From: Candidatus Daviesbacteria bacterium RIFCSPHIGHO2_12_FULL_37_16
Lineage (GTDB): Bacteria; Patescibacteriota; Microgenomatia; Daviesbacterales; UBA10151
Direction: 5' to 3'
NCBI GenBank assembly: GCA_001776785.1
Contig: MFDF01000008.1
Location: 18,443 to 82,442, forward strand
DNA length: 64,000 bases
Shown in pieces: positions 3,330-41,653 of this stretch. Position numbers and translations under genes: made by a program. The notes below the pieces were generated by a model. It was given only the letters and a program-made list of their open reading frames with translations, did no database searches and was not told where the DNA came from. The stretch's first letter is position 1. The number at the start of each line of letters is the position of its first letter.

Positions 3330-3896
3330 ATGAGCAAAATTTCAATTATTGCAGCTATGAGTAAAAACAGGGTTATTGGGACAAAAAATAAACTTCCATG
3401 GAATATCCCTGATGAATTAAAAAGGTTTAGGCAAATTACAGAAGGTCATCCAATAATCATGGGCAGAAAAACCCATGAATCCATTGGTAGGGTTTTACCC
3501 AATAGGCTAAACATTATTATCACAAGGGATGAAAATTATATTCGCAAGAATAATCTTGCTCATTATCAAACAAGATATAAAGTTGATGGTGTAATAATTG
3601 TCCATTCTTTGGAAGAAGCCATAAAAACTGCTAAGAATATATATCCTTCGGCTGCGCCCGCCTTTGGCGTGGCTGCGCCTCAGGATGACAAAAGTGAAAT
3701 CTTCATTATTGGGGGCGGGGAGATTTACAGACAGGCTTTACCCTTGGCAGATAAACTATATTTAACAGTAATAGATAAGAAATATGAAGGTGACACCTTC
3801 TTTCCAGACTATTCTGAGTTTAAAAAGGTGATAAAAGAAGAAAAAAAACAAACTGATGGTGGAGTTTCCTATACTCTTTTTGAACTTGAAAAATGA
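3330..3896 (+). CDS. folA: dihydrofolate reductase with two in-frame insertions
   Basis: IIAAMSKNRVIGTKNKLPWNIPDELKRF and IIMGRKTHESIG are classic DHFR motifs; extra loops NYIRKNNLAHYQTRYK and YPSAAPAFGVAAPQDDKS relative to E. coli DHFR. Confidence 0.85.
   Translation: MSKISIIAAMSKNRVIGTKNKLPWNIPDELKRFRQITEGHPIIMGRKTHESIGRVLPNRLNIIITRDENYIRKNNLAHYQTRYKVDGVIIVHSLEEAIKTAKNIYPSAAPAFGVAAPQDDKSEIFIIGGGEIYRQALPLADKLYLTVIDKKYEGDTFFPDYSEFKKVIKEEKKQTDGGVSYTLFELEK
3535..3580. repeat. short repeat, copy A (in frame within folA); 31-nt core near-identical to 17382-17415
   Basis: attatattcgcaagaataatcttgCtcattatc (A) vs atttatattcgcaagaataatcttgTtcattatc (B), followed by aaacaagatataa / aaaaaagatataa. 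Confidence 0.6.
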
Positions 3897-4264: not shown

Positions 4265-5209
4265 ATGGCAATTTCAACACCTTCAATGCAGGAGTTATTA
4301 ACAGCAGGTGTCCACTTTGGACACAAGATCTCCCGTGGCCACCCTAAGATGAAGCAATTTATCTATGGTGCAAGAGAAGGAGTGCATATTATTGATTTAG
4401 CCATGGCAGATGAAAAGTTAAAAGAAGCAGCAGAGGAAGCTTATAAGTTAGGAAAAGCTGGAAAAGTTTTATTAATTGTAGGTACAAAAAAACAAGCCCA
4501 GCAAAAAATAGAAAGCTTGGCTAAAGAAGCAAACTCCTTTTATTTAAACAAAAGGTGGGTTGGAGGGCTTTTGACAAATTTTGAAGAAATCAGAAAAAAT
4601 ATTAAAAAATTAAATGACTTAAAAATCCAGCAGGAAAAAGGAGAACTTTCAAGGTATACAAAAAAAGAACAGCTTTTAATCTCCAGAAAATTAACTAAAT
4701 TCATCTCAGAACTTGGAGGGATTGCAGATATGGATAAAATCCCTGATGCAATGTTTATTGTAGATGCAGTTTCAGATAAAACTGCAGTTGTAGAAGCCAA
4801 AAAAACAGGAGTAGAAGTTTTAGGCCTTTGTGACACAAATGCAGACCCATATTTTTTTGACTTCCCGGTCCCTGCAAATGATGATGGAATTAAATCAATA
4901 AACCTCATTTGTGACACAGTTTTGGGAGCATATGTAAAAGGCAAAAAATCCTCCTCCGCTCAAGCTACGGAGGACAAGGAAGCTGGAATAAAAGAAGAGT
5001 CGAAGGAGTCGGAAGGGACTGAAGAGCCGAAGGTCAAGAAAACTGGGGAAAAAGCAGGGGAGAAAAAATCTGAAAAAATAGAAGAAAAAACAGAAAATCC
5101 TGAAGAACCGGCACCAGCAGTTGATGCAGCAGTAGCCCATGAGACAGCTGCCCTAGAAGAAGAAGTAGAAAAAGTAGTTTTAGAGGAAAGTGAGAGGAAA
5201 ATAGAATAA
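4265..5209 (+). CDS. rpsB: 30S ribosomal protein S2 with acidic C-terminal extension
   Basis: MQELLTAGVHFGHKISRGHPKMKQFIYGAREGVHIIDL is the S2 signature; the Glu/Lys-rich tail contains a GC-rich hairpin repeat. Confidence 0.95.
   Translation: MAISTPSMQELLTAGVHFGHKISRGHPKMKQFIYGAREGVHIIDLAMADEKLKEAAEEAYKLGKAGKVLLIVGTKKQAQQKIESLAKEANSFYLNKRWVGGLLTNFEEIRKNIKKLNDLKIQQEKGELSRYTKKEQLLISRKLTKFISELGGIADMDKIPDAMFIVDAVSDKTAVVEAKKTGVEVLGLCDTNADPYFFDFPVPANDDGIKSINLICDTVLGAYVKGKKSSSAQATEDKEAGIKEESKESEGTEEPKVKKTGEKAGEKKSEKIEEKTENPEEPAPAVDAAVAHETAALEEEVEKVVLEESERKIE
4953..4975. repeat. GC-rich hairpin motif cctccgctcaagctacggaggac (copy in rpsB); related copy at 8388-8411
   Basis: TCCTCCG...CGGAGGA stem; 20/23 identical to cctccgctaaagctacggcaggac in the proS leader. 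Confidence 0.5.
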
Positions 5210-5319: not shown

Positions 5320-5775
5320 ATGAGCATATCAGTAGATGACATTAAAAAACTAAGAGAAGAGACAGGTGCAGGGATCGCAGACTGTAGAGAGGCTTTAGAA
5401 GAAGCAAAAGGAGATTTAGAAAAAGCAAAACAAGTTTTAAAGAAAAAGGGTTTGGATAAAGCAGGATCTAAATCTGACAGGGAAGTTAGGGCTGGGATTG
5501 TTGATGTTTACTCTCATGGGGGCAGGGTTGGGGTTATGGTTGAACTTTTGTGTGAAACAGACTTTGTTGCCCGCACTGATGATTTTAAAAATTTAGCCCA
5601 TGAGCTTTCACTGCAGATTGCCTCTATGAGACCTGACAGTGTATCAGATCTTTTAGAGCAGGAATATGTTAGGGACCCTTCCCTAAAAATAGATGATTTA
5701 ATAAAAGCTGCAGTTTTAAAACTTGGGGAAAATATCCAGGTTGGCAGGTTTGAAAGAATTGAGTTAGGGAAATAA
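5320..5775 (+). CDS. tsf: elongation factor Ts (short form)
   Basis: N-terminal UBA-like KKLREETGAGIADCREALEEAKGDLEKA and EF-Ts core; 151 aa as in CPR/short EF-Ts. Confidence 0.9.
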   Translation: MSISVDDIKKLREETGAGIADCREALEEAKGDLEKAKQVLKKKGLDKAGSKSDREVRAGIVDVYSHGGRVGVMVELLCETDFVARTDDFKNLAHELSLQIASMRPDSVSDLLEQEYVRDPSLKIDDLIKAAVLKLGENIQVGRFERIELGK

Positions 5776-5778
5776 TAA

Positions 5779-5888
5779 CCAAGAAACAAGATACAAGTGA
5801 GCAAAGCTCCTGCTAACGCAGTAACAAACAATTTTTTAATACTAAATATTTCAATTTGTTTGTATCTTGGTTATTGTATCTTGTAAAC
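5779..5888. repeat. inverted-repeat hairpin element (ccaagaaacaagatacaag ... tttgtttgtatcttgg ttattgtatc) directly after the tsf stop; probable terminator/REP-like element
   Basis: ~17/19 bp complementary arms; same arms recur at 19179-19245 and the right arm at 26071-26100. Confidence 0.6.
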
Positions 5889-5900
5889 TTAATTTAAGCT

Positions 5901-6455
5901 ATGGAACCTTTTATAACTGAAGTAAACCAAAAAATCTCCCAGGCAATTGAGCATTTGAAAAGAGAACTTTCAGGAATCAGGGCTGGGCGCGCAAACCCAA
6001 CACTATTGGAAGATATTCAAGTTTTGGCATATGGTTCACAGATGAAACTTATGGAAGTTGGTACTATCACAGCGCCCCAACCCTCACTTTTAACAGTCCA
6101 GGTTTGGGACCCGGGTATTATTAAAGATGTTGAAAAAGCAATTATGGAGGCGAACTTAGGTTTAAATCCATCAACAGAGGGTACTACCCTCAGGGTTCCA
6201 ATCCCGCCCTTATCTGAAGAAAGAAGGGTAGAATTTGTTAAACTTTCCCACCAAAAAGGGGAACAGTTCAAAGTTGAGATTAGACAAATCAGACAGGAGG
6301 CAAGGAGTGATTGGGACAGGCAAAAAGAGTCAGGAGAGATAGGTGAGGATGAGCTATTTAGGAGACAAAATATGCTCCAGGACCTGGTTGACAAATCCAC
6401 CAACTCAATTGACATAATGATTAAGCAAAAAGAAGAAGAATTAATGGAAATTTAA
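5901..6455 (+). CDS. frr: ribosome recycling factor
   Basis: LSGIRAGRANPTLLEDIQVLAYG...LNPSTEGTTLRVPIPPLSEERR is the RRF signature. Confidence 0.95.
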   Translation: MEPFITEVNQKISQAIEHLKRELSGIRAGRANPTLLEDIQVLAYGSQMKLMEVGTITAPQPSLLTVQVWDPGIIKDVEKAIMEANLGLNPSTEGTTLRVPIPPLSEERRVEFVKLSHQKGEQFKVEIRQIRQEARSDWDRQKESGEIGEDELFRRQNMLQDLVDKSTNSIDIMIKQKEEELMEI

Positions 6456-7585
6456 TGTTTATTTTAGTTTTTATAATTACTATCCTTATTTTAGTTGTTA
6501 TTCATGAACTTGGGCACTTTTTTGCTGCGAAAAAATTTAACATAAAAGTTTTAGAATTTGGGTTTGGGCTTCCACCCAGGGCCTGGGGCAAAAAAATTGG
6601 TGAAACAATCTGGAGTCTTAACTGGCTTCCTTTTGGAGGTTTTGTCAGGCTTTTGGGTGAAGATGAGGTGGATAAAGAAGTTTTAGACAATACCCGCTCT
6701 TTTGCAGCCCAGCCTGTCACTAAAAGGATGCTGGTTGTAGTAGCTGGGGTTGTAATGAATTTAATATTGGCCTGGCTTTTATTTTATATAGTTTTGGGAG
6801 CTCAAAACTTTAAAGCACAAGTCCCGCTTTTGTCTGACCATAAATTTGCAGGAGTCTCCCAAACTAATGAAAAAATTATCTTAATTGGGGATGTAGTTCC
6901 AAATTCTCCAGCCTCTCAGGCAGGTTTAAGCTCAGGGGAGCGGGTAATTGCAGTTGACAGTGAAGAAGTTTTAGATGCAAACCAGTTTATAGAAATTACA
7001 AAGCAAAAAGCAGGACAACCTATGCAGCTAACTGTTTCTGATATTGCAAAATCAGATCAAAGGATTTTAGAAATTACCCCTAGGGAAAATCCACCATCTG
7101 GAGAAGGCCCACTGGGGGTTTCACTTGGGACTTTTGAGATTGCTAATTTAGAATATAAAGAGCCATTGCAGATTGCACTGTCAGGGCCAATCCATTCCTA
7201 TAATTTAATAACTTATTCCTGGGAGATTTTAGCAAAAACTGTTTCATACTCTTTTGCTCAAAAAGATATAACCCCTGTTTCCCAAAATGTGGCAGGCCCA
7301 ATAGGGATTACCAATATAGTTAAAGAAATTTTAAGTGTCAAAAACCCTCTTATTCCATACTTAGACTTTATGGCAGCACTATCTTTGAACCTGGCCATAA
7401 TAAACATTCTTCCATTCCCTGGACTTGATGGAGGCAGGTTTTTCTTCCTGTTACTTGAGGCTATAACCAGGAAAAAAGCTCACCCAACAATAGAAAAATA
7501 TGTCCACACCATTGGCCTGGCCATTTTACTGGGATTAATATTTTTAGTAACTCTCTCAGACATCAAAAAACTCATCCCCCAATAG
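6455..7585 (+). CDS. rseP: RIP metalloprotease RseP (site-2 protease, M50 family) with PDZ domain
   Basis: HELGHFFAAKKF zinc motif, polytopic TM profile, central PDZ-like region, C-terminal LDGG motif. Confidence 0.85.
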   Translation: MFILVFIITILILVVIHELGHFFAAKKFNIKVLEFGFGLPPRAWGKKIGETIWSLNWLPFGGFVRLLGEDEVDKEVLDNTRSFAAQPVTKRMLVVVAGVVMNLILAWLLFYIVLGAQNFKAQVPLLSDHKFAGVSQTNEKIILIGDVVPNSPASQAGLSSGERVIAVDSEEVLDANQFIEITKQKAGQPMQLTVSDIAKSDQRILEITPRENPPSGEGPLGVSLGTFEIANLEYKEPLQIALSGPIHSYNLITYSWEILAKTVSYSFAQKDITPVSQNVAGPIGITNIVKEILSVKNPLIPYLDFMAALSLNLAIINILPFPGLDGGRFFFLLLEAITRKKAHPTIEKYVHTIGLAILLGLIFLVTLSDIKKLIPQ

Positions 7586-7654
7586 CTTACTATTCACATC
7601 TGTTTATAAGCTTCCACAGACTTAGAGTCCATAGATACTCATTTCTTATACAGC

Positions 7655-7688
7655 GTTACAATCAATAGCTATCGCAACTCATTGTAAC
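7655..7688. repeat. hairpin element gttacaat-caatagctatcgcaactc-attgtaac immediately upstream of the PaaX-like gene
   Basis: 8-bp perfect outer stem; loop aatagctatcgc shared with copies at 8253-8290 and 41146-41181. Confidence 0.55.
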
Positions 7689-7698
7689 AATAGTTGAA

Positions 7699-8268
7699 GT
7701 GGAGTATTCTGGTTCTATGGATAAGGTAACAACAAAAGATGTGCTTAAAGTTATTGCAGTAAGCGGAGTAGTCATAGGAAGTTTTGTAATTCCAGCATTG
7801 CCCATAGCTGCAGCATCTGCATTTAAGATATGGAAAAACTTTAACAGAAGGGATGTAGGCAGAATCCTAAAAAGACTTGAAAAACAACAAATGATTTCAG
7901 TCAAAGAAAATAATGGAAAAATATATATAGAAATTGCTGAAAAGGGTAAAAGAAGATTGTTAGAGTATGATTTTGAAAATATTGAGCTTAAATCTAAGAA
8001 AAGAGATGGAAAATGGAGATTAATAATTTTTGATATTCCAGAATATAAAAAAAGTGCAAGGGAAGTTTTCAGAAGAAAACTTAAACAGTTAGATATAATT
8101 CAACTCCAAAAAAGTGTATTTGCATCAGCTTTTTCCTGTAAAAATGAAATAGATTTCTTGTGTAACTTCTTAGAAATTTCAGATTATGTAACTTTGGTAT
8201 CTTTAAATAAAATAGAAAGAGGAGAACAACTTATCTTCAAAAAATATCATGATTGGGACAACGAATAG
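7699..8268 (+). CDS. membrane-anchored PaaX-like regulator family protein (winged helix + Cas2-like C-terminal domain)
   Basis: TM segment VIAVSGVVIGSFVIPALPIAAASAF; wing ILKRLEKQQMISVKENNGKIYIEIAEKGKRRL; C-terminal DGKWRLIIFDIPEYKKSAREVFRRKLKQLDIIQLQKSVF matches the PaaX_C / Cas2-like WhLvxfxIPE..R..R..LR..L...GF..LQ.SVW pattern; no CRISPR array nearby. Confidence 0.5.
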   Translation: MEYSGSMDKVTTKDVLKVIAVSGVVIGSFVIPALPIAAASAFKIWKNFNRRDVGRILKRLEKQQMISVKENNGKIYIEIAEKGKRRLLEYDFENIELKSKKRDGKWRLIIFDIPEYKKSAREVFRRKLKQLDIIQLQKSVFASAFSCKNEIDFLCNFLEISDYVTLVSLNKIERGEQLIFKKYHDWDNE

Positions 8269-8290
8269 CTATCGCTACTTAGTGTACCAA
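8253..8290. repeat. second copy of the aatagctatcgc-loop hairpin, overlapping the stop codon of the PaaX-like gene
   Basis: ttgggacaac-gaatagctatcgctactta-gtgtaccaa; loop nearly identical to 7661-7680. Confidence 0.5.
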
Positions 8291-8299
8291 AGCCATTTT

Positions 8300-8530
8300 A
8301 TATTTCAAACTTGAAACTTGAAATTTAATAACAGAATTTATTATAATCAATTCAAAGCTGTGAAAGAGTTTCCCGCTCTGGAGTCCGCCTCCGCTAAAGC
8401 TACGGCAGGACGAGCTGGGTGCGATAAGCATCCCCGGTTGAACCGTAAAAACTTAAATTGAGAAGTAATCAAGGTGGTACCACGAATGCACTTCGTCCTT
8501 GCAAGAGTGTAAGGAAGGAGTGCTTTTTTA
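8300..8530 (+). promoter_or_regulatory. putative T-box riboswitch leader of proS
   Basis: aatcaaGGTGGTACCacg resembles the T-box consensus AGGGUGGNACCGCG; followed by hairpin gcacttcgtccttgc...aaggaaggagtgc plus TTTTTT directly before the proS start; region is GC-rich relative to flanks. Confidence 0.5.
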
Positions 8531-10246
8531 ATGCTTTATTCAAAGTTATTTCCAAAAACAATTAAAGAAACACCTAAAGATGCTTCACTGACCTCCCATA
8601 AACTCCTTTACAGGGGTGGGTTTATCAGGGAATCAGCAGCAGGAAGATATTACTTGCTTCCACTTGGAATAAGGGTCCATCAAAAAATACAAAAAATCAT
8701 AAAAGAGGAGATGGATAAAACAGGAGCCCAGGAAATGGTAACTCCAGTTTTGCACCCTAAAGAACTCTGGAAAGAAACAAACAGAACTTCCTCAGTAGGT
8801 TTTGAGTTAATGAGCATAAAAGACAGAAATGAGATGGAGTTTGTTTTAGGTGGAACAGCAGAAGAAATGCTTGTAGATCTAGTTAGAAAATTCAAACTAA
8901 GTTATAGGGACCTGCCATTTAATCTTTATCAATTTTCCACAAAATTCAGGGATGAGTTAAGAGCTAGAGGAGGTCTTTTAAGGCTTAGAGAGTTCATGAT
9001 GAAAGATGCTTATTCTTTTGATGCAACAGAGGGTGATTTTAAAACTGAATATGAAAAAATGTCAAAGACTTATACAGAAATTTTTAATAGGATGGGTTTA
9101 AAAACAATTATTGTTGAATCTGACAATGGATACATTGGTGGGGAATACTGTCATGAGTTTGTAGTTGAATCAGAAGTTGGTGAAAGCAGATTTTTAATGA
9201 CAGAAGATGGTTCATATGCAGCACATGAAGATGTAGCTAAATTTAGCTTAGAAAGAAAAAATGTTTCTGAAAAAGAAAAACCTTTAGAAGAAGTAGAGGC
9301 AGTTAGAGGAACAACAATGGAGGATGGAGTTAAACTGCATAATCTGCCTCTTTGGCAGCAGATCAAAGATGTGTTATTTGTAGATGAAAAAGGCAGGTTT
9401 ATTTTAAGCATTATTAGGGGTGACTATGATGTTAATGAAACAAAGCTTTTACATCTAATTAAATCCTACCAATTAAGACATGCAACAGAAGAAGAGATAA
9501 GGGAAAAGATTCACTCTGAACCTGGATTTATTTCTCCTGTGGGAATTAAAGACATTATAGAAAAGGATGTTGAACTAATTATTGTTGCAGATGATTCACT
9601 AAGGACTGTTAAAAATGCTTATGGTGGTGCAAACAAAAAACACAGAGACCTTTTAAATATGAATATAGACAGAGACTATAAAGCAGACATAGAAGGGGAT
9701 ATTGCTTTAGCCAGGGAAGGGGACTTAGCAGCAGATGGGGGAGGAAAGTTAATAGCAAAAAAGGGAATTGAGGTTGGAAATATTTTCCAGCTTGGTTTTC
9801 ATTATTCTTCAAAGATGAAAGGTGCAAATTACATAGATAAAGATGGTAAAGAAAAACCTTATTATATGGGTTGTTATGGCATAGGCCTTGCCAGGACTTT
9901 GGCCACAGTAGTTGAAGTTTACAATGATGAAAAGGGCATTGTATGGCCAGAATCTGTAGCACCATATCAAGTTCACCTTGTTGGTTTAGACCTATCTGAC
10001 AAAGCTGTTTTGGAAAAAGCAGAACAAGTTTATAAAATTCTAACTTCTCATGGGATAGAAGTTTTATTTGATGACAGGATAGAGCCCTCTGCAGGTGAAA
10101 AGTTTGCAGATGCAGATTTGATAGGGATTCCTTATAGAGTAGTAATTTCTAAGAAAACCGGAGCAGAGATAGAAGTTAAAAAAAGGTCCCAAAAAGAGAC
10201 TGAATTTAAAAAATTAGAGGATCTGGTAAAATCTATCAAGGAATGA
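8531..10246 (+). CDS. proS: prolyl-tRNA synthetase
   Basis: Class II aaRS motifs (FRDELRARGGLLRLREFMMKDAYSFD), ProRS anticodon-binding C-terminus; 571 aa. Confidence 0.95.
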   Translation: MLYSKLFPKTIKETPKDASLTSHKLLYRGGFIRESAAGRYYLLPLGIRVHQKIQKIIKEEMDKTGAQEMVTPVLHPKELWKETNRTSSVGFELMSIKDRNEMEFVLGGTAEEMLVDLVRKFKLSYRDLPFNLYQFSTKFRDELRARGGLLRLREFMMKDAYSFDATEGDFKTEYEKMSKTYTEIFNRMGLKTIIVESDNGYIGGEYCHEFVVESEVGESRFLMTEDGSYAAHEDVAKFSLERKNVSEKEKPLEEVEAVRGTTMEDGVKLHNLPLWQQIKDVLFVDEKGRFILSIIRGDYDVNETKLLHLIKSYQLRHATEEEIREKIHSEPGFISPVGIKDIIEKDVELIIVADDSLRTVKNAYGGANKKHRDLLNMNIDRDYKADIEGDIALAREGDLAADGGGKLIAKKGIEVGNIFQLGFHYSSKMKGANYIDKDGKEKPYYMGCYGIGLARTLATVVEVYNDEKGIVWPESVAPYQVHLVGLDLSDKAVLEKAEQVYKILTSHGIEVLFDDRIEPSAGEKFADADLIGIPYRVVISKKTGAEIEVKKRSQKETEFKKLEDLVKSIKE

Positions 10247-13217: not shown

Positions 13218-13304
13218 TTAAAGCTGATTAATGATTGAAGATTAAGGATTAAAGAGAAAAAGAAAAAATCATTAATCATTCTTCATTAATCTTTAATCAT
13301 CTCA

Positions 13305-17358: not shown

Positions 17359-17381
17359 GTCTTTAAAATTTATTCTTTATA

Positions 17382-17431
17382 ATTTATATTCGCAAGAATA
17401 ATCTTGTTCATTATCTTTAAAAAAGATATAA
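17382..17431. repeat. short repeat copy B (intergenic, glyA-ybaB), near-identical to folA-internal copy 3535-3580
   Basis: 31/32-nt identity. Confidence 0.6.
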
Positions 17432-17721: not shown

Positions 17722-18123
17722 TCAGTGATTAATGATTACTGATTTAGGATTAATGAATGTTTTGCTCTTTTTAATAAATCCCTGTAACAATTTATCAACT
17801 ATATTCGCTTGATCTGCTAAATTCATCATTGCCTCATTATTCAAATAACCAACATCTTTTGCAATTAAAATAAAGTTTTTCAATTCTGATAATGAGCCTT
17901 TTGATAAATAATAAAACTGAACCTTCTCTTTATAACCTTGCCTACCAAAACCTTCTGCAATATTAGCCGTTATAGAAGCTGCAGCTCTTCGCATCTGATC
18001 AGTAATAGAATAAGTTTCTTCCTTTGGAAAGTTCTTAGTAATTTTGTAAATCAAGATAACTAGTTTATGCCCTTCTTTCCAGACATTTAAATCAGTAAAA
18101 GTTTCAATTTTCCCATTCCTCAT
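17722..18123 (-). CDS. four-helix-bundle protein (TIGR02436-like, 23S rRNA intervening-sequence protein family)
   Basis: W..GHKLVILIYKITKNFPKEETYSITDQMRRAAASITANIAEGFGR...SLSEL pattern. Confidence 0.8.
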   Translation of the reverse strand: MRNGKIETFTDLNVWKEGHKLVILIYKITKNFPKEETYSITDQMRRAAASITANIAEGFGRQGYKEKVQFYYLSKGSLSELKNFILIAKDVGYLNNEAMMNLADQANIVDKLLQGFIKKSKTFINPKSVIINH

Positions 18124-18160
18124 ATTCTTTAATCAGTAATCTTCCATCTTTAATCTTAAA

Positions 18161-25606: not shown

Positions 25607-26230
25607 ATGAACAAAAAACTGCAGCTTATTTTACTGGGAGTTTTTATACTGCTTGCAGTTTATGTAAAATCTAACTATATAGTAAGTACAGACCTTTTCA
25701 TAACCCAAACACTGCAAAATCTAAATTTTTTCTGGTTTGATTTATTAATGAAATTTATTTCCAAGTTGGGTTATCAAATAACATGGATAATTTCTCTTCT
25801 TGGAGCAGTATTATTTTTTATGCTTCTTAAAAAAAGAAAAGAAGCCTTAGTTATTTTCATGTCCATTTTAGGGGCATTATTTTTAAGCGAGTTTTTTAAA
25901 ATTATAATTGCCCGTCCAAGGCCAGATCCTAATTTAATCTATCAGTTTGAAAAATTAGCCAGGTTTGATTCATACCCGTCAGGACATATACTGTTTGCAA
26001 TTGGTTTTTATGGCTTTATTTTCTACTTGATTTACAAAAACCTCAAAAAAAGGCTTGCTTAAAAACTTATTACTTGTTTCTTGTATCTTGGTTATTATCC
26101 TGATGGGTTTTTCCAGGATTTATCTTGGGTCCCATTGGTTTTCAGATGTATTAGGAGCTTACATTTTAGGAATTTTATGGATTAATTTTATTATAAATCT
26201 GTACAAAAGGTTAAAAGTTTAGTTATACTA
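25607..26230 (+). pseudogene. PAP2-family phosphatase split by a frameshift at an A7 homopolymer (26046-26052); motifs 1-2 in frame 2, motif 3 in the next frame
   Basis: KIIIARPRP and YPSGH in the 25607-26062 ORF; SRIYLGSHWFSDVLGA (SRx5Hx3D) continues in the +1 frame to 26220; the junction lies inside the cttgtttcttgtatcttggttattatc repeat. Confidence 0.5.
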
Positions 26231-40564: not shown

Positions 40565-41143
40565 ATGAAACTTACATTAACCTTATTTTCAATTTTATTA
40601 TTTTGCATTGGGATTTTATCTTTCCAGCAAAACTCTAAAAATAACCCCACAGTTTTATCTGCAACTGTAGAAGATAAATATTGGCTTTTACTTTATAGAA
40701 AATCTAATGTTGAGTACTTATATACAGGAGTACCTGGAGAAATAGAAAAATCTAATCTGGTAAAAACTTTTAAAGTAAAAACTGGAGTTCCAGGAGAAAA
40801 ACCAACTCCACTTCCCAAACTTTTAGGGAGAGAATATTGGGTTATTACAGAAAAACTTGATGCATCAGAAAACCCAGAAACTGCCCCTTACTTTTTAACT
40901 TTGAATATACCAGTGACTGAAGAGAAACCCTTCGGACCCACTCCATATGAAGAATGTTCTGGGCAGTGTGATTGGGAAATTCCTGGGGCATTTGGTTTAC
41001 ATGGAGTAAATGGAGATTTGAGTAAATTAGAAGATGAAGGTTCCTCAGGCTGCATTAGACATTCAGATGAAGACATTACATATTTATATAATTTTTTAAA
41101 CCCAGTTGATATGGAGATTAGATATTATATAGAAGATATTTAG
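40565..41143 (+). CDS. L,D-transpeptidase (YkuD domain)
   Basis: HGVNGDLSKLEDEGSSGCIRHSDEDI catalytic His/Cys motif. Confidence 0.75.
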   Translation: MKLTLTLFSILLFCIGILSFQQNSKNNPTVLSATVEDKYWLLLYRKSNVEYLYTGVPGEIEKSNLVKTFKVKTGVPGEKPTPLPKLLGREYWVITEKLDASENPETAPYFLTLNIPVTEEKPFGPTPYEECSGQCDWEIPGAFGLHGVNGDLSKLEDEGSSGCIRHSDEDITYLYNFLNPVDMEIRYYIEDI

Positions 41144-41145
41144 CT

Positions 41146-41181
41146 GGTGACAATCAATTGCTATAGCAATCCTTTGTCACC
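41146..41181. terminator. nested hairpin ggtgacaa-tcaattgctatagcaatcc-ttgtcacc between convergent genes (third copy of the aat(a/t)gctat(c/a)gcaa loop family)
   Basis: 8-bp outer stem plus inner perfect palindrome ttgctatagcaa. Confidence 0.55.
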
Positions 41182-41212: not shown

Positions 41213-41653
41213 TTATCCTAAATAACCCATTACCAAACCCATTAACATTAACCCAACTAGCTGGTAGCTTGTATCAATTCCCAAAAGTTGCCACTTATTT
41301 TTATTATCAGATCCAAAAATGGCATTTCCAGTTTGGGTTGGCATTACAAACCCAAGCCACATCCAAAATCCAGATGTTAATCCAGTTGTAACTCTATCCG
41401 TCCCAAAAAAAGCCATAGACATTATCATTACATGGTATAAAATATAAGCTGTTAAAAGTGAAACTACAAAAGTTAGTCCATAGAGTGGACCCATTTTTGC
41501 CTGTTCTGCTTTTAATTCAGATGAGTTAAGGCCTCTAAGTTTCATCCATGGTTTTCCCAAAAGTGAAGGTGAATACCACAAGAATCCTAAAACCATATAT
41601 GCTATTGCTGCAGCCAAAACTGATATATAATTTACTTCTATCAATCTAATCAC
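41213..41653 (-). CDS. hypothetical polytopic membrane protein (DUF1761-like)
   Basis: 4 TM helices, LGFLWYSP motif. Confidence 0.4.
   Translation of the reverse strand: MIRLIEVNYISVLAAAIAYMVLGFLWYSPSLLGKPWMKLRGLNSSELKAEQAKMGPLYGLTFVVSLLTAYILYHVMIMSMAFFGTDRVTTGLTSGFWMWLGFVMPTQTGNAIFGSDNKNKWQLLGIDTSYQLVGLMLMGLVMGYLG

Follow-up and report, generated by a model that had tools for sequence, protein, structure and literature searches.

A reduced PaaX-like protein of Candidatus Daviesbacteria and the conserved palindromes that bracket its gene: a predicted self-repressing regulator

The locus

This analysis concerns a small gene and three related palindromes in a stretch of 64,000 nucleotides from Candidatus Daviesbacteria bacterium RIFCSPHIGHO2_12_FULL_37_16 (contig MFDF01000008.1, positions 18,443 to 82,442; hereafter the window, to which coordinates refer unless another locus is named). 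The genome has a low GC content (about 36%) and belongs to the Microgenomates (Daviesbacteria-like) group. The open reading frame (ORF), at 7699-8268, is located between rseP, which encodes a site-2 protease (6455-7585), and proS (8531-10246). It is part of a conserved cluster, rpsB-tsf-frr-rseP-X-proS-tig, in which X is the gene in question, and its position is largely syntenic in relatives. The closest named homologues of the product come from Candidatus Daviesbacteria and Levybacteria, and groundwater metagenome contigs carry proteins identical to it. The product is called mini-PaaX here.

The mechanical ORF begins at GTG 7699 and gives the 189 residues reported in the first-pass annotation of this DNA. 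The translation start is probably ATG 7717 instead, since the homologues start at the equivalent methionine and the promoter geometry described below points to the same codon; the coding sequence would thus be 7717-8268 on the forward strand, with 183 residues. No second paralogue of mini-PaaX was found within the 64-kb window. Neither a CRISPR nor any other tandem array is present there, and the called neighbours are housekeeping genes (no profile search for cas1 was made). A link to phages or mobile elements was also considered and rejected, as viral contigs contained no mini-PaaX homologue.

The gene is bracketed by two palindromes. Copy 1, at 7655-7688, reads GTTACAAT-caatagctatcgcaactc-ATTGTAAC, and copy 2, at 8253-8290, has the arms TTGGgACA...TGTaCCAA; both share aatagctatcgc, at 7664-7675 and 8264-8275. 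Copy 3, GGTGACAA-tcaattgctatagcaatcc-TTGTCACC, is located far from the gene at 41146-41181. As 36-bp dyads, the flanking copies span 7654-7689 (the upstream site) and 8254-8289 (the downstream site), both on the forward strand. Copies that do not flank the gene are referred to as orphans.

A reduced PaaX-like protein with a Cas2-like domain

The Pfam search revealed that the main domain of mini-PaaX is PaaX_M (PF20803, described as a central Cas2-like domain), with 66.5 bits against a cut-off of 24 and an E-value of 2.2e-18. This domain, encoded at 7996-8217 on the forward strand, carries an invariant FDIPE motif. PaaX_C was not matched in Pfam at E-values up to 10, and the protein ends about 16 residues past the middle domain. 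The first-pass annotation had described a transmembrane helix, a winged-helix segment and a domain with the PaaX_C/Cas2-like signature; the putative anchor and winged helix and the PaaX-like/Cas2-like character of the domain are supported, while PaaX_C has to be replaced by PaaX_M because the protein stops after the middle domain. In the profile search that it suggested, PaaX_M was above the cut-off, PaaX_C unmatched and Cas2 under the cut-off.

Concerning the Cas2 profiles, the overall scores were 15-23 bits, all below cut-off. TIGR01573 (Cas2, NCBIfam) gave 20.6 bits against 24.5, the best PADLOC Cas2 model gave 23.1 bits over residues 100-137 only, and Cas2 sequences from the Protein Data Bank (PDB) matched with an E-value of about 0.35. 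The PaaX equivalog TIGR02277 (NCBIfam) reached 21.3 bits against a cut-off of 264.55, and hhalign to Escherichia coli PaaX was weak (probability of 31%). The sequence search of solved structures gave no significant match, and PaaX was found only by fold search. For the latter, an AlphaFold model was built from 60 homologues. In this model, the middle domain shows a beta-alpha-beta-beta-alpha-beta ferredoxin fold (strands 96-105, 128-131, 134-139 and 158-163; helices 109-124 and 142-152) with a predicted local distance difference test (pLDDT) above 90. Foldseek against solved structures ranked E. coli PaaX (8a39) first, with an E-value of 6.7e-5 over 174 aligned columns, followed by Cas2 structures at ranks 2-8.

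The N-terminal PaaX family of Pfam was not matched. The model presents a helix-hairpin-helix at residues 44-87, and the Foldseek alignment to PaaX spans 174 columns. This putative winged-helix region (residues 41-88 approximately, 7837-7980 on the forward strand) comprises a helix at 44-56, a beta hairpin at 60-73 and a helix at 75-87, and it also gave weak matches to winged-helix profiles. Ahead of it, the first 40 residues or so are hydrophobic and contain invariant prolines, according to the sequence and the alignments. The hydrophobic segment itself (residues 10-38 approximately, 7744-7830 on the forward strand, with invariant P26 and P29) has low confidence in the model and is read as a putative membrane anchor. 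The remainder of the protein would be cytoplasmic because the stretch that follows the anchor is strongly basic. The alternative of a cleavable signal peptide (AAASA-F in the window protein) was rejected, because the A-x-A motif is not conserved (homologues show LVKTYK, LAHTYK and others) and there would be no reason to export a winged helix.

The Cas2-type FD(I)P motif is kept across the mini-PaaX family, including the aspartate at the Cas2 catalytic position, whereas E. coli PaaX does not have it. Taken together, these results place mini-PaaX outside Cas2 proper, and the NCBI label "CRISPR-associated endonuclease Cas2" of some homologues is probably a mis-annotation; others appear in the databases as hypothetical. 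Nor is it PaaX proper, because it has no C-terminal domain, no paa context and a score far under that of the equivalog. It would behave as a stripped-down PaaX with a putative membrane anchor.

The family is large, with 4328 clusters at 50% identity (E-values up to 0.001), most of them full-length proteins of 180-240 residues. Across Daviesbacteria and Levybacteria the identity is 60-78%. Gene regulation is hardly understood at all in the Candidate Phyla Radiation (CPR, or Patescibacteria), ultra-small bacteria of groundwater, and the literature search found no paper linking PaaX-like or Cas2-like winged-helix proteins to this group. The family is specific to CPR as far as it has been sampled, and it is unstudied in the literature searched. 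A large family in a core housekeeping neighbourhood, up to now labelled Cas2 or hypothetical, gains a concrete and testable site model, which is described below.

The palindromes are specific sites tied to the gene

The repeat search of the window grouped the three copies in one in-register family (D2), with 76-79% identity over 34 nt. The motif AATWGCTATMGCWA occurs at three sites (plus the palindromic reverse of one of them) versus 0.36 expected, and none of 100 shuffles reached three. A weight matrix built from orthologous sites gave 39.5 bits for the upstream site, 38.2 for the downstream site and 38.6 for the third copy. The rest of the 64-kb window did not exceed 12 bits and shuffled windows gave 0.15 hits. 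The relationship between the three palindromes, first noticed from the sequence, is thus real.

To define the site, 39 sites were placed in a 36-nt register. Eight bases are invariant, namely CA at positions 6-7, GC at 15-16, GC at 21-22 and TG at 30-31. A5 and T32 are nearly invariant and complete the outer boxes ACA and TGT. In the upstream site of the window these elements are ACA 7658-7660, GC 7668-7669, GC 7674-7675 and TGT 7683-7685. Given how the invariant bases fall, each half-site is ACA-N7-GC, whose two patches are spaced by roughly one turn of the helix, and the complete site is ACA-N7-GC-N4-GC-N7-TGT, with outer boxes GNNACA...TGTNNC 22 bp apart and, in the upstream copy, a right arm that would double as a -35 box. 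The central four bases vary (TATA, TATC, GGTC, GGCC, TCCA), as do positions 8-12. The statement of the first-pass annotation that the loop sequence, and not just the stems, is conserved is therefore not supported: ACA/TGT in the outer arms and GC/GC next to the centre are invariant, while the very centre changes.

Dyad symmetry is maintained across the sites, with pairing in 80% of the cells versus 66% in shuffles and 101 double-change cells versus 46; none of 500 shuffles reached the observed values. Mismatches on the sense strand do not show an excess of G-T (31, versus 40 A-C), and positions 8-12 are poorly complementary in the Daviesbacteria sites. Both features fit a duplex read by a protein better than an RNA stem.

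For the comparison with relatives, 26 loci encoding mini-PaaX homologues were taken from species-representative genomes. Overall, such a pair of palindromes brackets the gene at about 40 loci of Daviesbacteria, Levybacteria and Parcubacteria, in every lineage examined, and the sequence of the palindromes changes with lineage. Nearly all of the 26 loci have one palindrome just 5' of the gene and another at the stop codon or just past it. In 14 of 17 distinct Microgenomates loci both flanking sites score 20-48 bits; the exceptions are L006 and L020, with an insertion in the downstream site, and L021, which reaches the end of its contig. In 430 kb of related loci, the weight matrix detected only two other full sites, the third copy of the window and one in L018. 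Parcubacteria homologues with 36-46% identity are bracketed as well, with different cores (GCATATGC, GCCATGGC, GCGATCGC), and metagenome homologues at 35-40% identity also present paired palindromes where the contigs allow it. In genomes with two paralogues (L006/L017, L007/L018 and L048), each paralogue has its own flavour of site. In fact, the similarity between upstream and downstream sites is 0.76 within a locus versus 0.58 between loci (permutation p<5e-5). These results support that the palindromes are specific sites tied to the mini-PaaX gene, as had been suggested for protein-binding sites in the first place: they bracket orthologous genes and co-vary within each locus.

Two other loci deserve a comment. 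In L019, the half-site relic gcgactcaatgtaac is found at 8137-8172 between rseP and proS, where relatives carry the gene; it is identical to the right half of the downstream sites of L010 and L012, and the L019 gene is now located after proS. This suggests the loss or relocation of a cassette formed by the gene and its sites. In L048 (13150-13990), a homologue with 36% identity is bracketed by palindromes with the GCCATGGC core, and an orphan with the CGCTATAGCG core is located 3 kb away on the same contig, so at least two flavours of site are possible per genome.

The upstream site overlaps a predicted promoter

The right arm of the upstream site, TTGTAA (7682-7687, forward strand), has the features of a -35 hexamer. 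It is placed 17 nt before TATTCT (7705-7710, forward strand), a -10 hexamer predicted from the sequence, which in turn is 6 nt before ATG 7717. The same geometry is found in 15 of the 19 upstream sites, where a TTGNNN right arm (TTGTAA, TTGTAC, TTGTCA or similar) is followed after 16-18 nt, mostly 17, by TAnnnT; ten of these 15 also have the TG of an extended -10. In the controls, it appeared in 1 of 16 downstream sites, in neither of the two orphans and, on the opposite strand, in 2 of 19 upstream and 1 of 16 downstream sites. An antisense promoter formed by the left arms was rejected because it stays at this background level.

A -10 box just 6 nt before the start codon implies a leaderless or near-leaderless mRNA, and a probable leaderless promoter architecture is thus proposed for these organisms. 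As the right arm occupies the -35 position in 15 of the 19 lineages, the upstream site can be read as an operator overlapping the -35, as in PaaX autorepression. It also precedes the predicted transcription start and would therefore act as DNA, outside the mRNA of the gene. As regards the upstream copy, the comparison of promoter geometry gives good support to the autoregulation of mini-PaaX put forward in the first-pass annotation.

The downstream and orphan sites

The last codons of the gene form part of the downstream site. TGG GAC AAC, in the left arm, is translated as the C-terminal W-D-N, and TAG (8266-8268), the stop codon, also falls within the palindrome. In Daviesbacteria and Levybacteria this arm (TGG or GGT, then GAC AAY) keeps a fixed phase, which gives a conserved C-terminal (W/G)-D-N. 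The layout is unusual, as the last codons of the putative regulator are written within its second predicted binding site. This copy is present whatever lies next, and the genes that follow are convergent in L017 and L018.

In the window, a promoter begins 29 nt past the downstream site. It is a strong sigma-70-type promoter upstream of proS (8318-8347; TTGAAA, 18 nt, TATAAT; 11 of 12 matches), followed by a T-box leader (8351-8503). This leader matched RF00230 with 39.7 bits and an E-value of 4.8e-7, the Rfam gathering score being 93, and it resembles a divergent CPR T-box.

The third copy (41146-41181, without an assigned strand) lies between two convergent genes, an L,D-transpeptidase gene (40565-41143, forward) and a DUF1761-like gene (41213-41653, reverse). 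It is 3 nt past the stop codon of the first gene and 32 nt before that of the second, with no -10 box at promoter spacing. In the sister species L152, whose L,D-transpeptidase neighbour is 75% identical, a palindrome with the same outer boxes is found at the same junction. The possibility that the third copy is the solo scar of a lost paralogue was discarded, as its flanking genes have no homologues beside the paralogues of L007, L017 and L018. Orphans are not most similar to the flanking sites of their own genome; they are closer to the family consensus.

A pattern scan of metagenomes with ACAW-N5-CGCTATAGCG-N5-WTGT retrieved at least 120 loci. Among the matches listed, the classifiable sites without the gene comprise 15 between convergent genes, 15 between divergent genes, 14 between tandem genes and 6 inside ORFs. 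The role of distal target operator that had been suggested for the third copy is thus unsupported, because such sites are equally common at the three kinds of junction. The other suggestion, a small structured repeat class, is partly right in that a low-copy dispersed class exists, although most of its sites among the matches listed could not be tied to mini-PaaX.

Some of these metagenome loci showed features of their own. Among the matches listed, a TrmB-like helix-turn-helix protein is the second commonest neighbour of palindromes with the CGCTATAGCG core, at six loci (L072, L075, L096, L119, L127 and L132); this protein could be another binder, or its gene a target. In L117, near-identical palindromes 2.5 kb apart (2457-2484 and 4947-4974) enclose three genes on the minus strand, with products of 144, 229 and 270 aa. 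The second of these products has a Cys-rich end (CDWCKYRH), and a 279-aa ORF is placed just outside the first palindrome. In L070 (2701-3804), the 1.08 kb that separate two palindromes contain no long ORF under genetic code table 11, and this interval may use an alternative genetic code or be non-coding.

Proposed mechanism and alternative explanations

The protein domains, the conserved bracketing, the co-variation of upstream and downstream sites and the promoter geometry point to a model in which mini-PaaX represses its own gene through the upstream site and also binds the further copies. As a whole, this model is considered moderately probable. The protein would consist of a membrane anchor at the N-terminus, a winged helix for DNA binding and the Cas2-like PaaX_M, without the ligand-binding C-terminal domain; the PaaX_M module would act as the dimerisation motif, as it does in PaaX. 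An oligomer of mini-PaaX would bind duplex DNA at the 34-36 bp dyad, with the halves ACA-N7-GC around the variable 4-bp centre. Binding at the upstream site, which overlaps the -35, would exclude RNA polymerase and result in negative autoregulation, as PaaX does at its promoter Px. The downstream copy would most likely cooperate with the upstream one, either through a DNA loop or by shielding the gene from transcription of its neighbours, and a few further chromosomal copies would be bound as well. Repression, the insertion into the membrane and whatever role the downstream and orphan sites may have are predictions of the model.

Several results weigh against it. The proposal that mini-PaaX is the binder comes from co-location and co-variation, and no simple correlation was evident between the residues of the recognition helix and the site core. 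Moreover, among the matches listed, a mini-PaaX homologue is found within 1 kb at only 17-18 of the metagenome loci, and another binder is thus possible for the rest. Nearly all of these listed sites are near-perfect palindromes of 36-40 nt, even through the unconstrained positions, and such perfection exceeds what a dimer operator needs. The third copy of the window and 15 of 44 classifiable orphans among the matches listed lie between convergent genes, where a promoter is not expected. In the L152 orphan, two compensatory changes in the inner stem keep the pairing, and the otherwise invariant GC/GC is lost. Finally, an insert of 25-34 nt interrupts the downstream sites of L006 (10552-10613), L020 (about 7880-7950) and L041 (about 2880-2950) precisely at the centre of the dyad, and the three inserts share CAAGCTNTGCTTATAGC. 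Such an insert would wreck the half-site spacing on duplex DNA and be harmless in a hairpin; in fact, the L006 site with its insert forms a single 75-nt hairpin (-33 kcal/mol, z -4.7). L005, a close relative of L006, does not have the insert. As a separate observation, L020 and L041 also present a small hairpin with a GAA loop, and its stem shows co-variation (GATAAC/GTTATC versus GACC/GGTC).

These points lead to a broader alternative, in which the palindromes are folded or extrudable DNA elements kept across CPR with a dedicated Cas2-fold, membrane-anchored partner. This could work in the manner of the repetitive extragenic palindromes (REP) and their associated tyrosine transposases (RAYT), with an enzyme of Cas2 nuclease fold as the partner of the repeats, or as a Noc-like pinning of specific hairpin-forming sites to the membrane. 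We hold this alternative to be on the unlikely side, but, if the palindromes were more than operators, the Cas2 fold would be used outside CRISPR to handle palindromic DNA sequence-specifically at the membrane, and the solitary Cas2-like proteins of CPR genomes would gain a non-CRISPR function. The rival ideas can be considered separately.

The first is that the palindromes act as folded single strands, either RNA hairpins at 3' ends or extruded DNA hairpins and cruciforms, and serve to stop transcription with the help of a factor, to stabilise transcripts or to act as roadblocks. In that case, what the Cas2-like domain recognises would be a folded nucleic acid, and the similarity between sites would reflect the common binder. 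The three copies of the window do fold into one architecture, in which an outer stem of 8-9 pairs leads through a symmetric internal loop to an inner stem closed by a tetraloop, with significant z-scores (-3.8, -2.4 and -7.0). The third copy is the most stable (-17.9 kcal/mol, with the z-score of -7.0), whereas the flanking hairpins have large internal loops and are weak, from -8 to -9.5 kcal/mol. The inserts at the apex, tolerated or even extending the stem, the compensatory changes of the orthologous orphan and the perfect listed palindromes agree with this reading. The same applies to the downstream site, inside the transcribed 3' end of the gene, and to the third of the listed orphans located between convergent stop codons; moreover, the relatives of Cas2 include RNases (e.g. 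3exc). However, the upstream site precedes the predicted transcription start and forms the -35 box, the sense strand has no G-U bias, and another third of the listed orphans lie in divergent promoter regions, where there are no 3' ends. Nor were the palindromes matched in Rfam 15, either in the window at gathering thresholds or in 7500-8700 at E-values up to 1, where the T-box was the sole match. An intrinsic (Rho-independent) terminator was rejected specifically: the terminator scan of 7300-8700 reported neither flanking site, and by reading there is no T-run after any of the three copies. Folded strands are for these reasons judged unlikely as the general explanation.

A second idea is architectural. 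Mini-PaaX could hold a few palindromes of the chromosome at the membrane, as Noc or RacA do with their sites, and thereby serve in nucleoid occlusion, segregation or insulation; sites beside its own gene would allow the co-translationally inserted protein to capture DNA in cis, and autoregulation would be a by-product. This would agree with a conserved hydrophobic N-terminus joined to a DNA-binding module in a protein that lacks both an extracytoplasmic sensor and a ligand domain, with sites in non-promoter contexts, and with so large a family being well conserved in reduced genomes. Membrane insertion is deduced from hydrophobicity, though, and we regard tethering as the main function as quite doubtful.

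The third idea is a REP/RAYT-like partnership, in which the palindromes are low-copy dispersed elements and the Cas2-fold protein is the cognate nuclease, or a mobilising enzyme, encoded between two copies in the way that RAYT transposases are between REP sequences. The gene bracketed by cognate, lineage-specific palindromes and the paralogues with their own flavours resemble such a system, and the listed orphans show no preference for gene orientation. The invariant aspartate of FDIPE, absent from E. coli PaaX, the relic of L019 between rseP and proS, and the insertion present in L006 and missing in L005 could also be taken in this sense. On the other hand, the copy number is tiny (three in 64 kb, and two non-flanking in 430 kb). 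Copies within a genome differ by 20-25% and are nearer to the family consensus than to each other, so there is no sign of recent copying. The position of the orphan is conserved between species, the gene is largely syntenic and not found in viral contigs, Pfam detected no HUH/Y1 domain and the upstream site has an ordinary predicted role in a promoter. This partnership is therefore considered highly improbable.

That the three copies are a functionless neutral leftover or a product of chance in an AT-rich, repeat-prone background, which is all that speaks for it, can be dismissed, as it is refuted by the motif statistics and weight-matrix scan, the likeness of upstream and downstream sites within a locus, the double changes, the promoter geometry and a bracketing conserved over phylum-level distances.

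Integron attC sites, dif/lox-like recombination sites and DnaA boxes were also rejected: the arms do not fit attC R boxes, there is no recombinase nearby, and TATCCACA is present in only a few of the metagenome sites listed.

Other features of the window

The elongation factor EF-Ts encoded at 5320-5775 has just 151 aa, a truncated form that is also conserved in related loci. The scan of the window for tRNA and tmRNA genes found nothing.

Other repeats were detected apart from the palindromes. A 35-nt direct repeat, AAATTATATTCGCAAGAATAATCTTGCTCATTATC (family D12), occurs at 3533-3567 and 17381-17415 with 94% identity; it holds the inverted repeat GCAAGA-ATAA-TCTTGC and may be another class of operator or hairpin. 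A 27-nt inverted repeat, ATAATAACCAAGAAACAAGATACAAGT (pair I22), is found at 5772-5798 and 26072-26098 with 93% complementarity, the first arm directly past tsf and the second directly past the ORF 25607-26062. Furthermore, GATTAA-rich imperfect repeats at 13226-13299, 17726-17762 and 18126-18155 pair as inverted repeats (pairs I5 and I18).

Comparison with known systems

PaaX is the closest known system. Its operator, TGATTC(N27)GAATCA, consists of two 6-bp inverted repeats 27 bp apart, and it represses its own promoter Px by steric hindrance (PMC9493321). This phenylacetyl-CoA-responsive repressor of paa operons in E. coli and Pseudomonas (PDB 8a39 and 3l09) has a winged helix followed by PaaX_M, an order also seen in mini-PaaX with its putative winged helix. 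Both would have a long operator with widely spaced inverted repeats, TGATTC-N27-GAATCA in PaaX and GNNACA-N22-TGTNNC in the site predicted for mini-PaaX, and this operator overlaps the own promoter, with occlusion in PaaX and predicted occlusion in mini-PaaX. In contrast, PaaX has 316 aa, versus about 183 in mini-PaaX, which has no PaaX_C and so no known effector site. Mini-PaaX also differs in its putative N-terminal membrane anchor, in the absence of paa genes nearby, in a second predicted operator at the stop codon and in the extra inner GC/GC patch of the site.

ToxR and CadC are membrane-integrated one-component regulators and Noc is membrane-associated; in all of them, a DNA-binding domain at the membrane recognises specific sites. 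Unlike them, mini-PaaX has no periplasmic sensor, with about 9 residues before the anchor, belongs to another fold family and has sites that bracket its own gene.

In REP/REPIN-RAYT systems, a single-copy gene has its cognate extragenic palindromes, 20-40 nt long, on both sides; the protein is specific for its repeat, and more copies are found in intergenic space (PMC3337134). The mini-PaaX gene is likewise flanked by cognate, lineage-specific palindromes. However, mini-PaaX is not an HUH tyrosine transposase, its sites are counted in units instead of tens to hundreds, the copies have diverged, and one of the flanking copies is a predicted promoter element.

Finally, mini-PaaX shares with Cas2, especially that of type II systems, the ferredoxin fold and the motif hhhFDxP...R..FRk.L...G...Q.SV(F/Y). 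It differs from Cas2 in the fusion to a putative anchor and winged helix, in scores below the cut-off and in its housekeeping neighbourhood.

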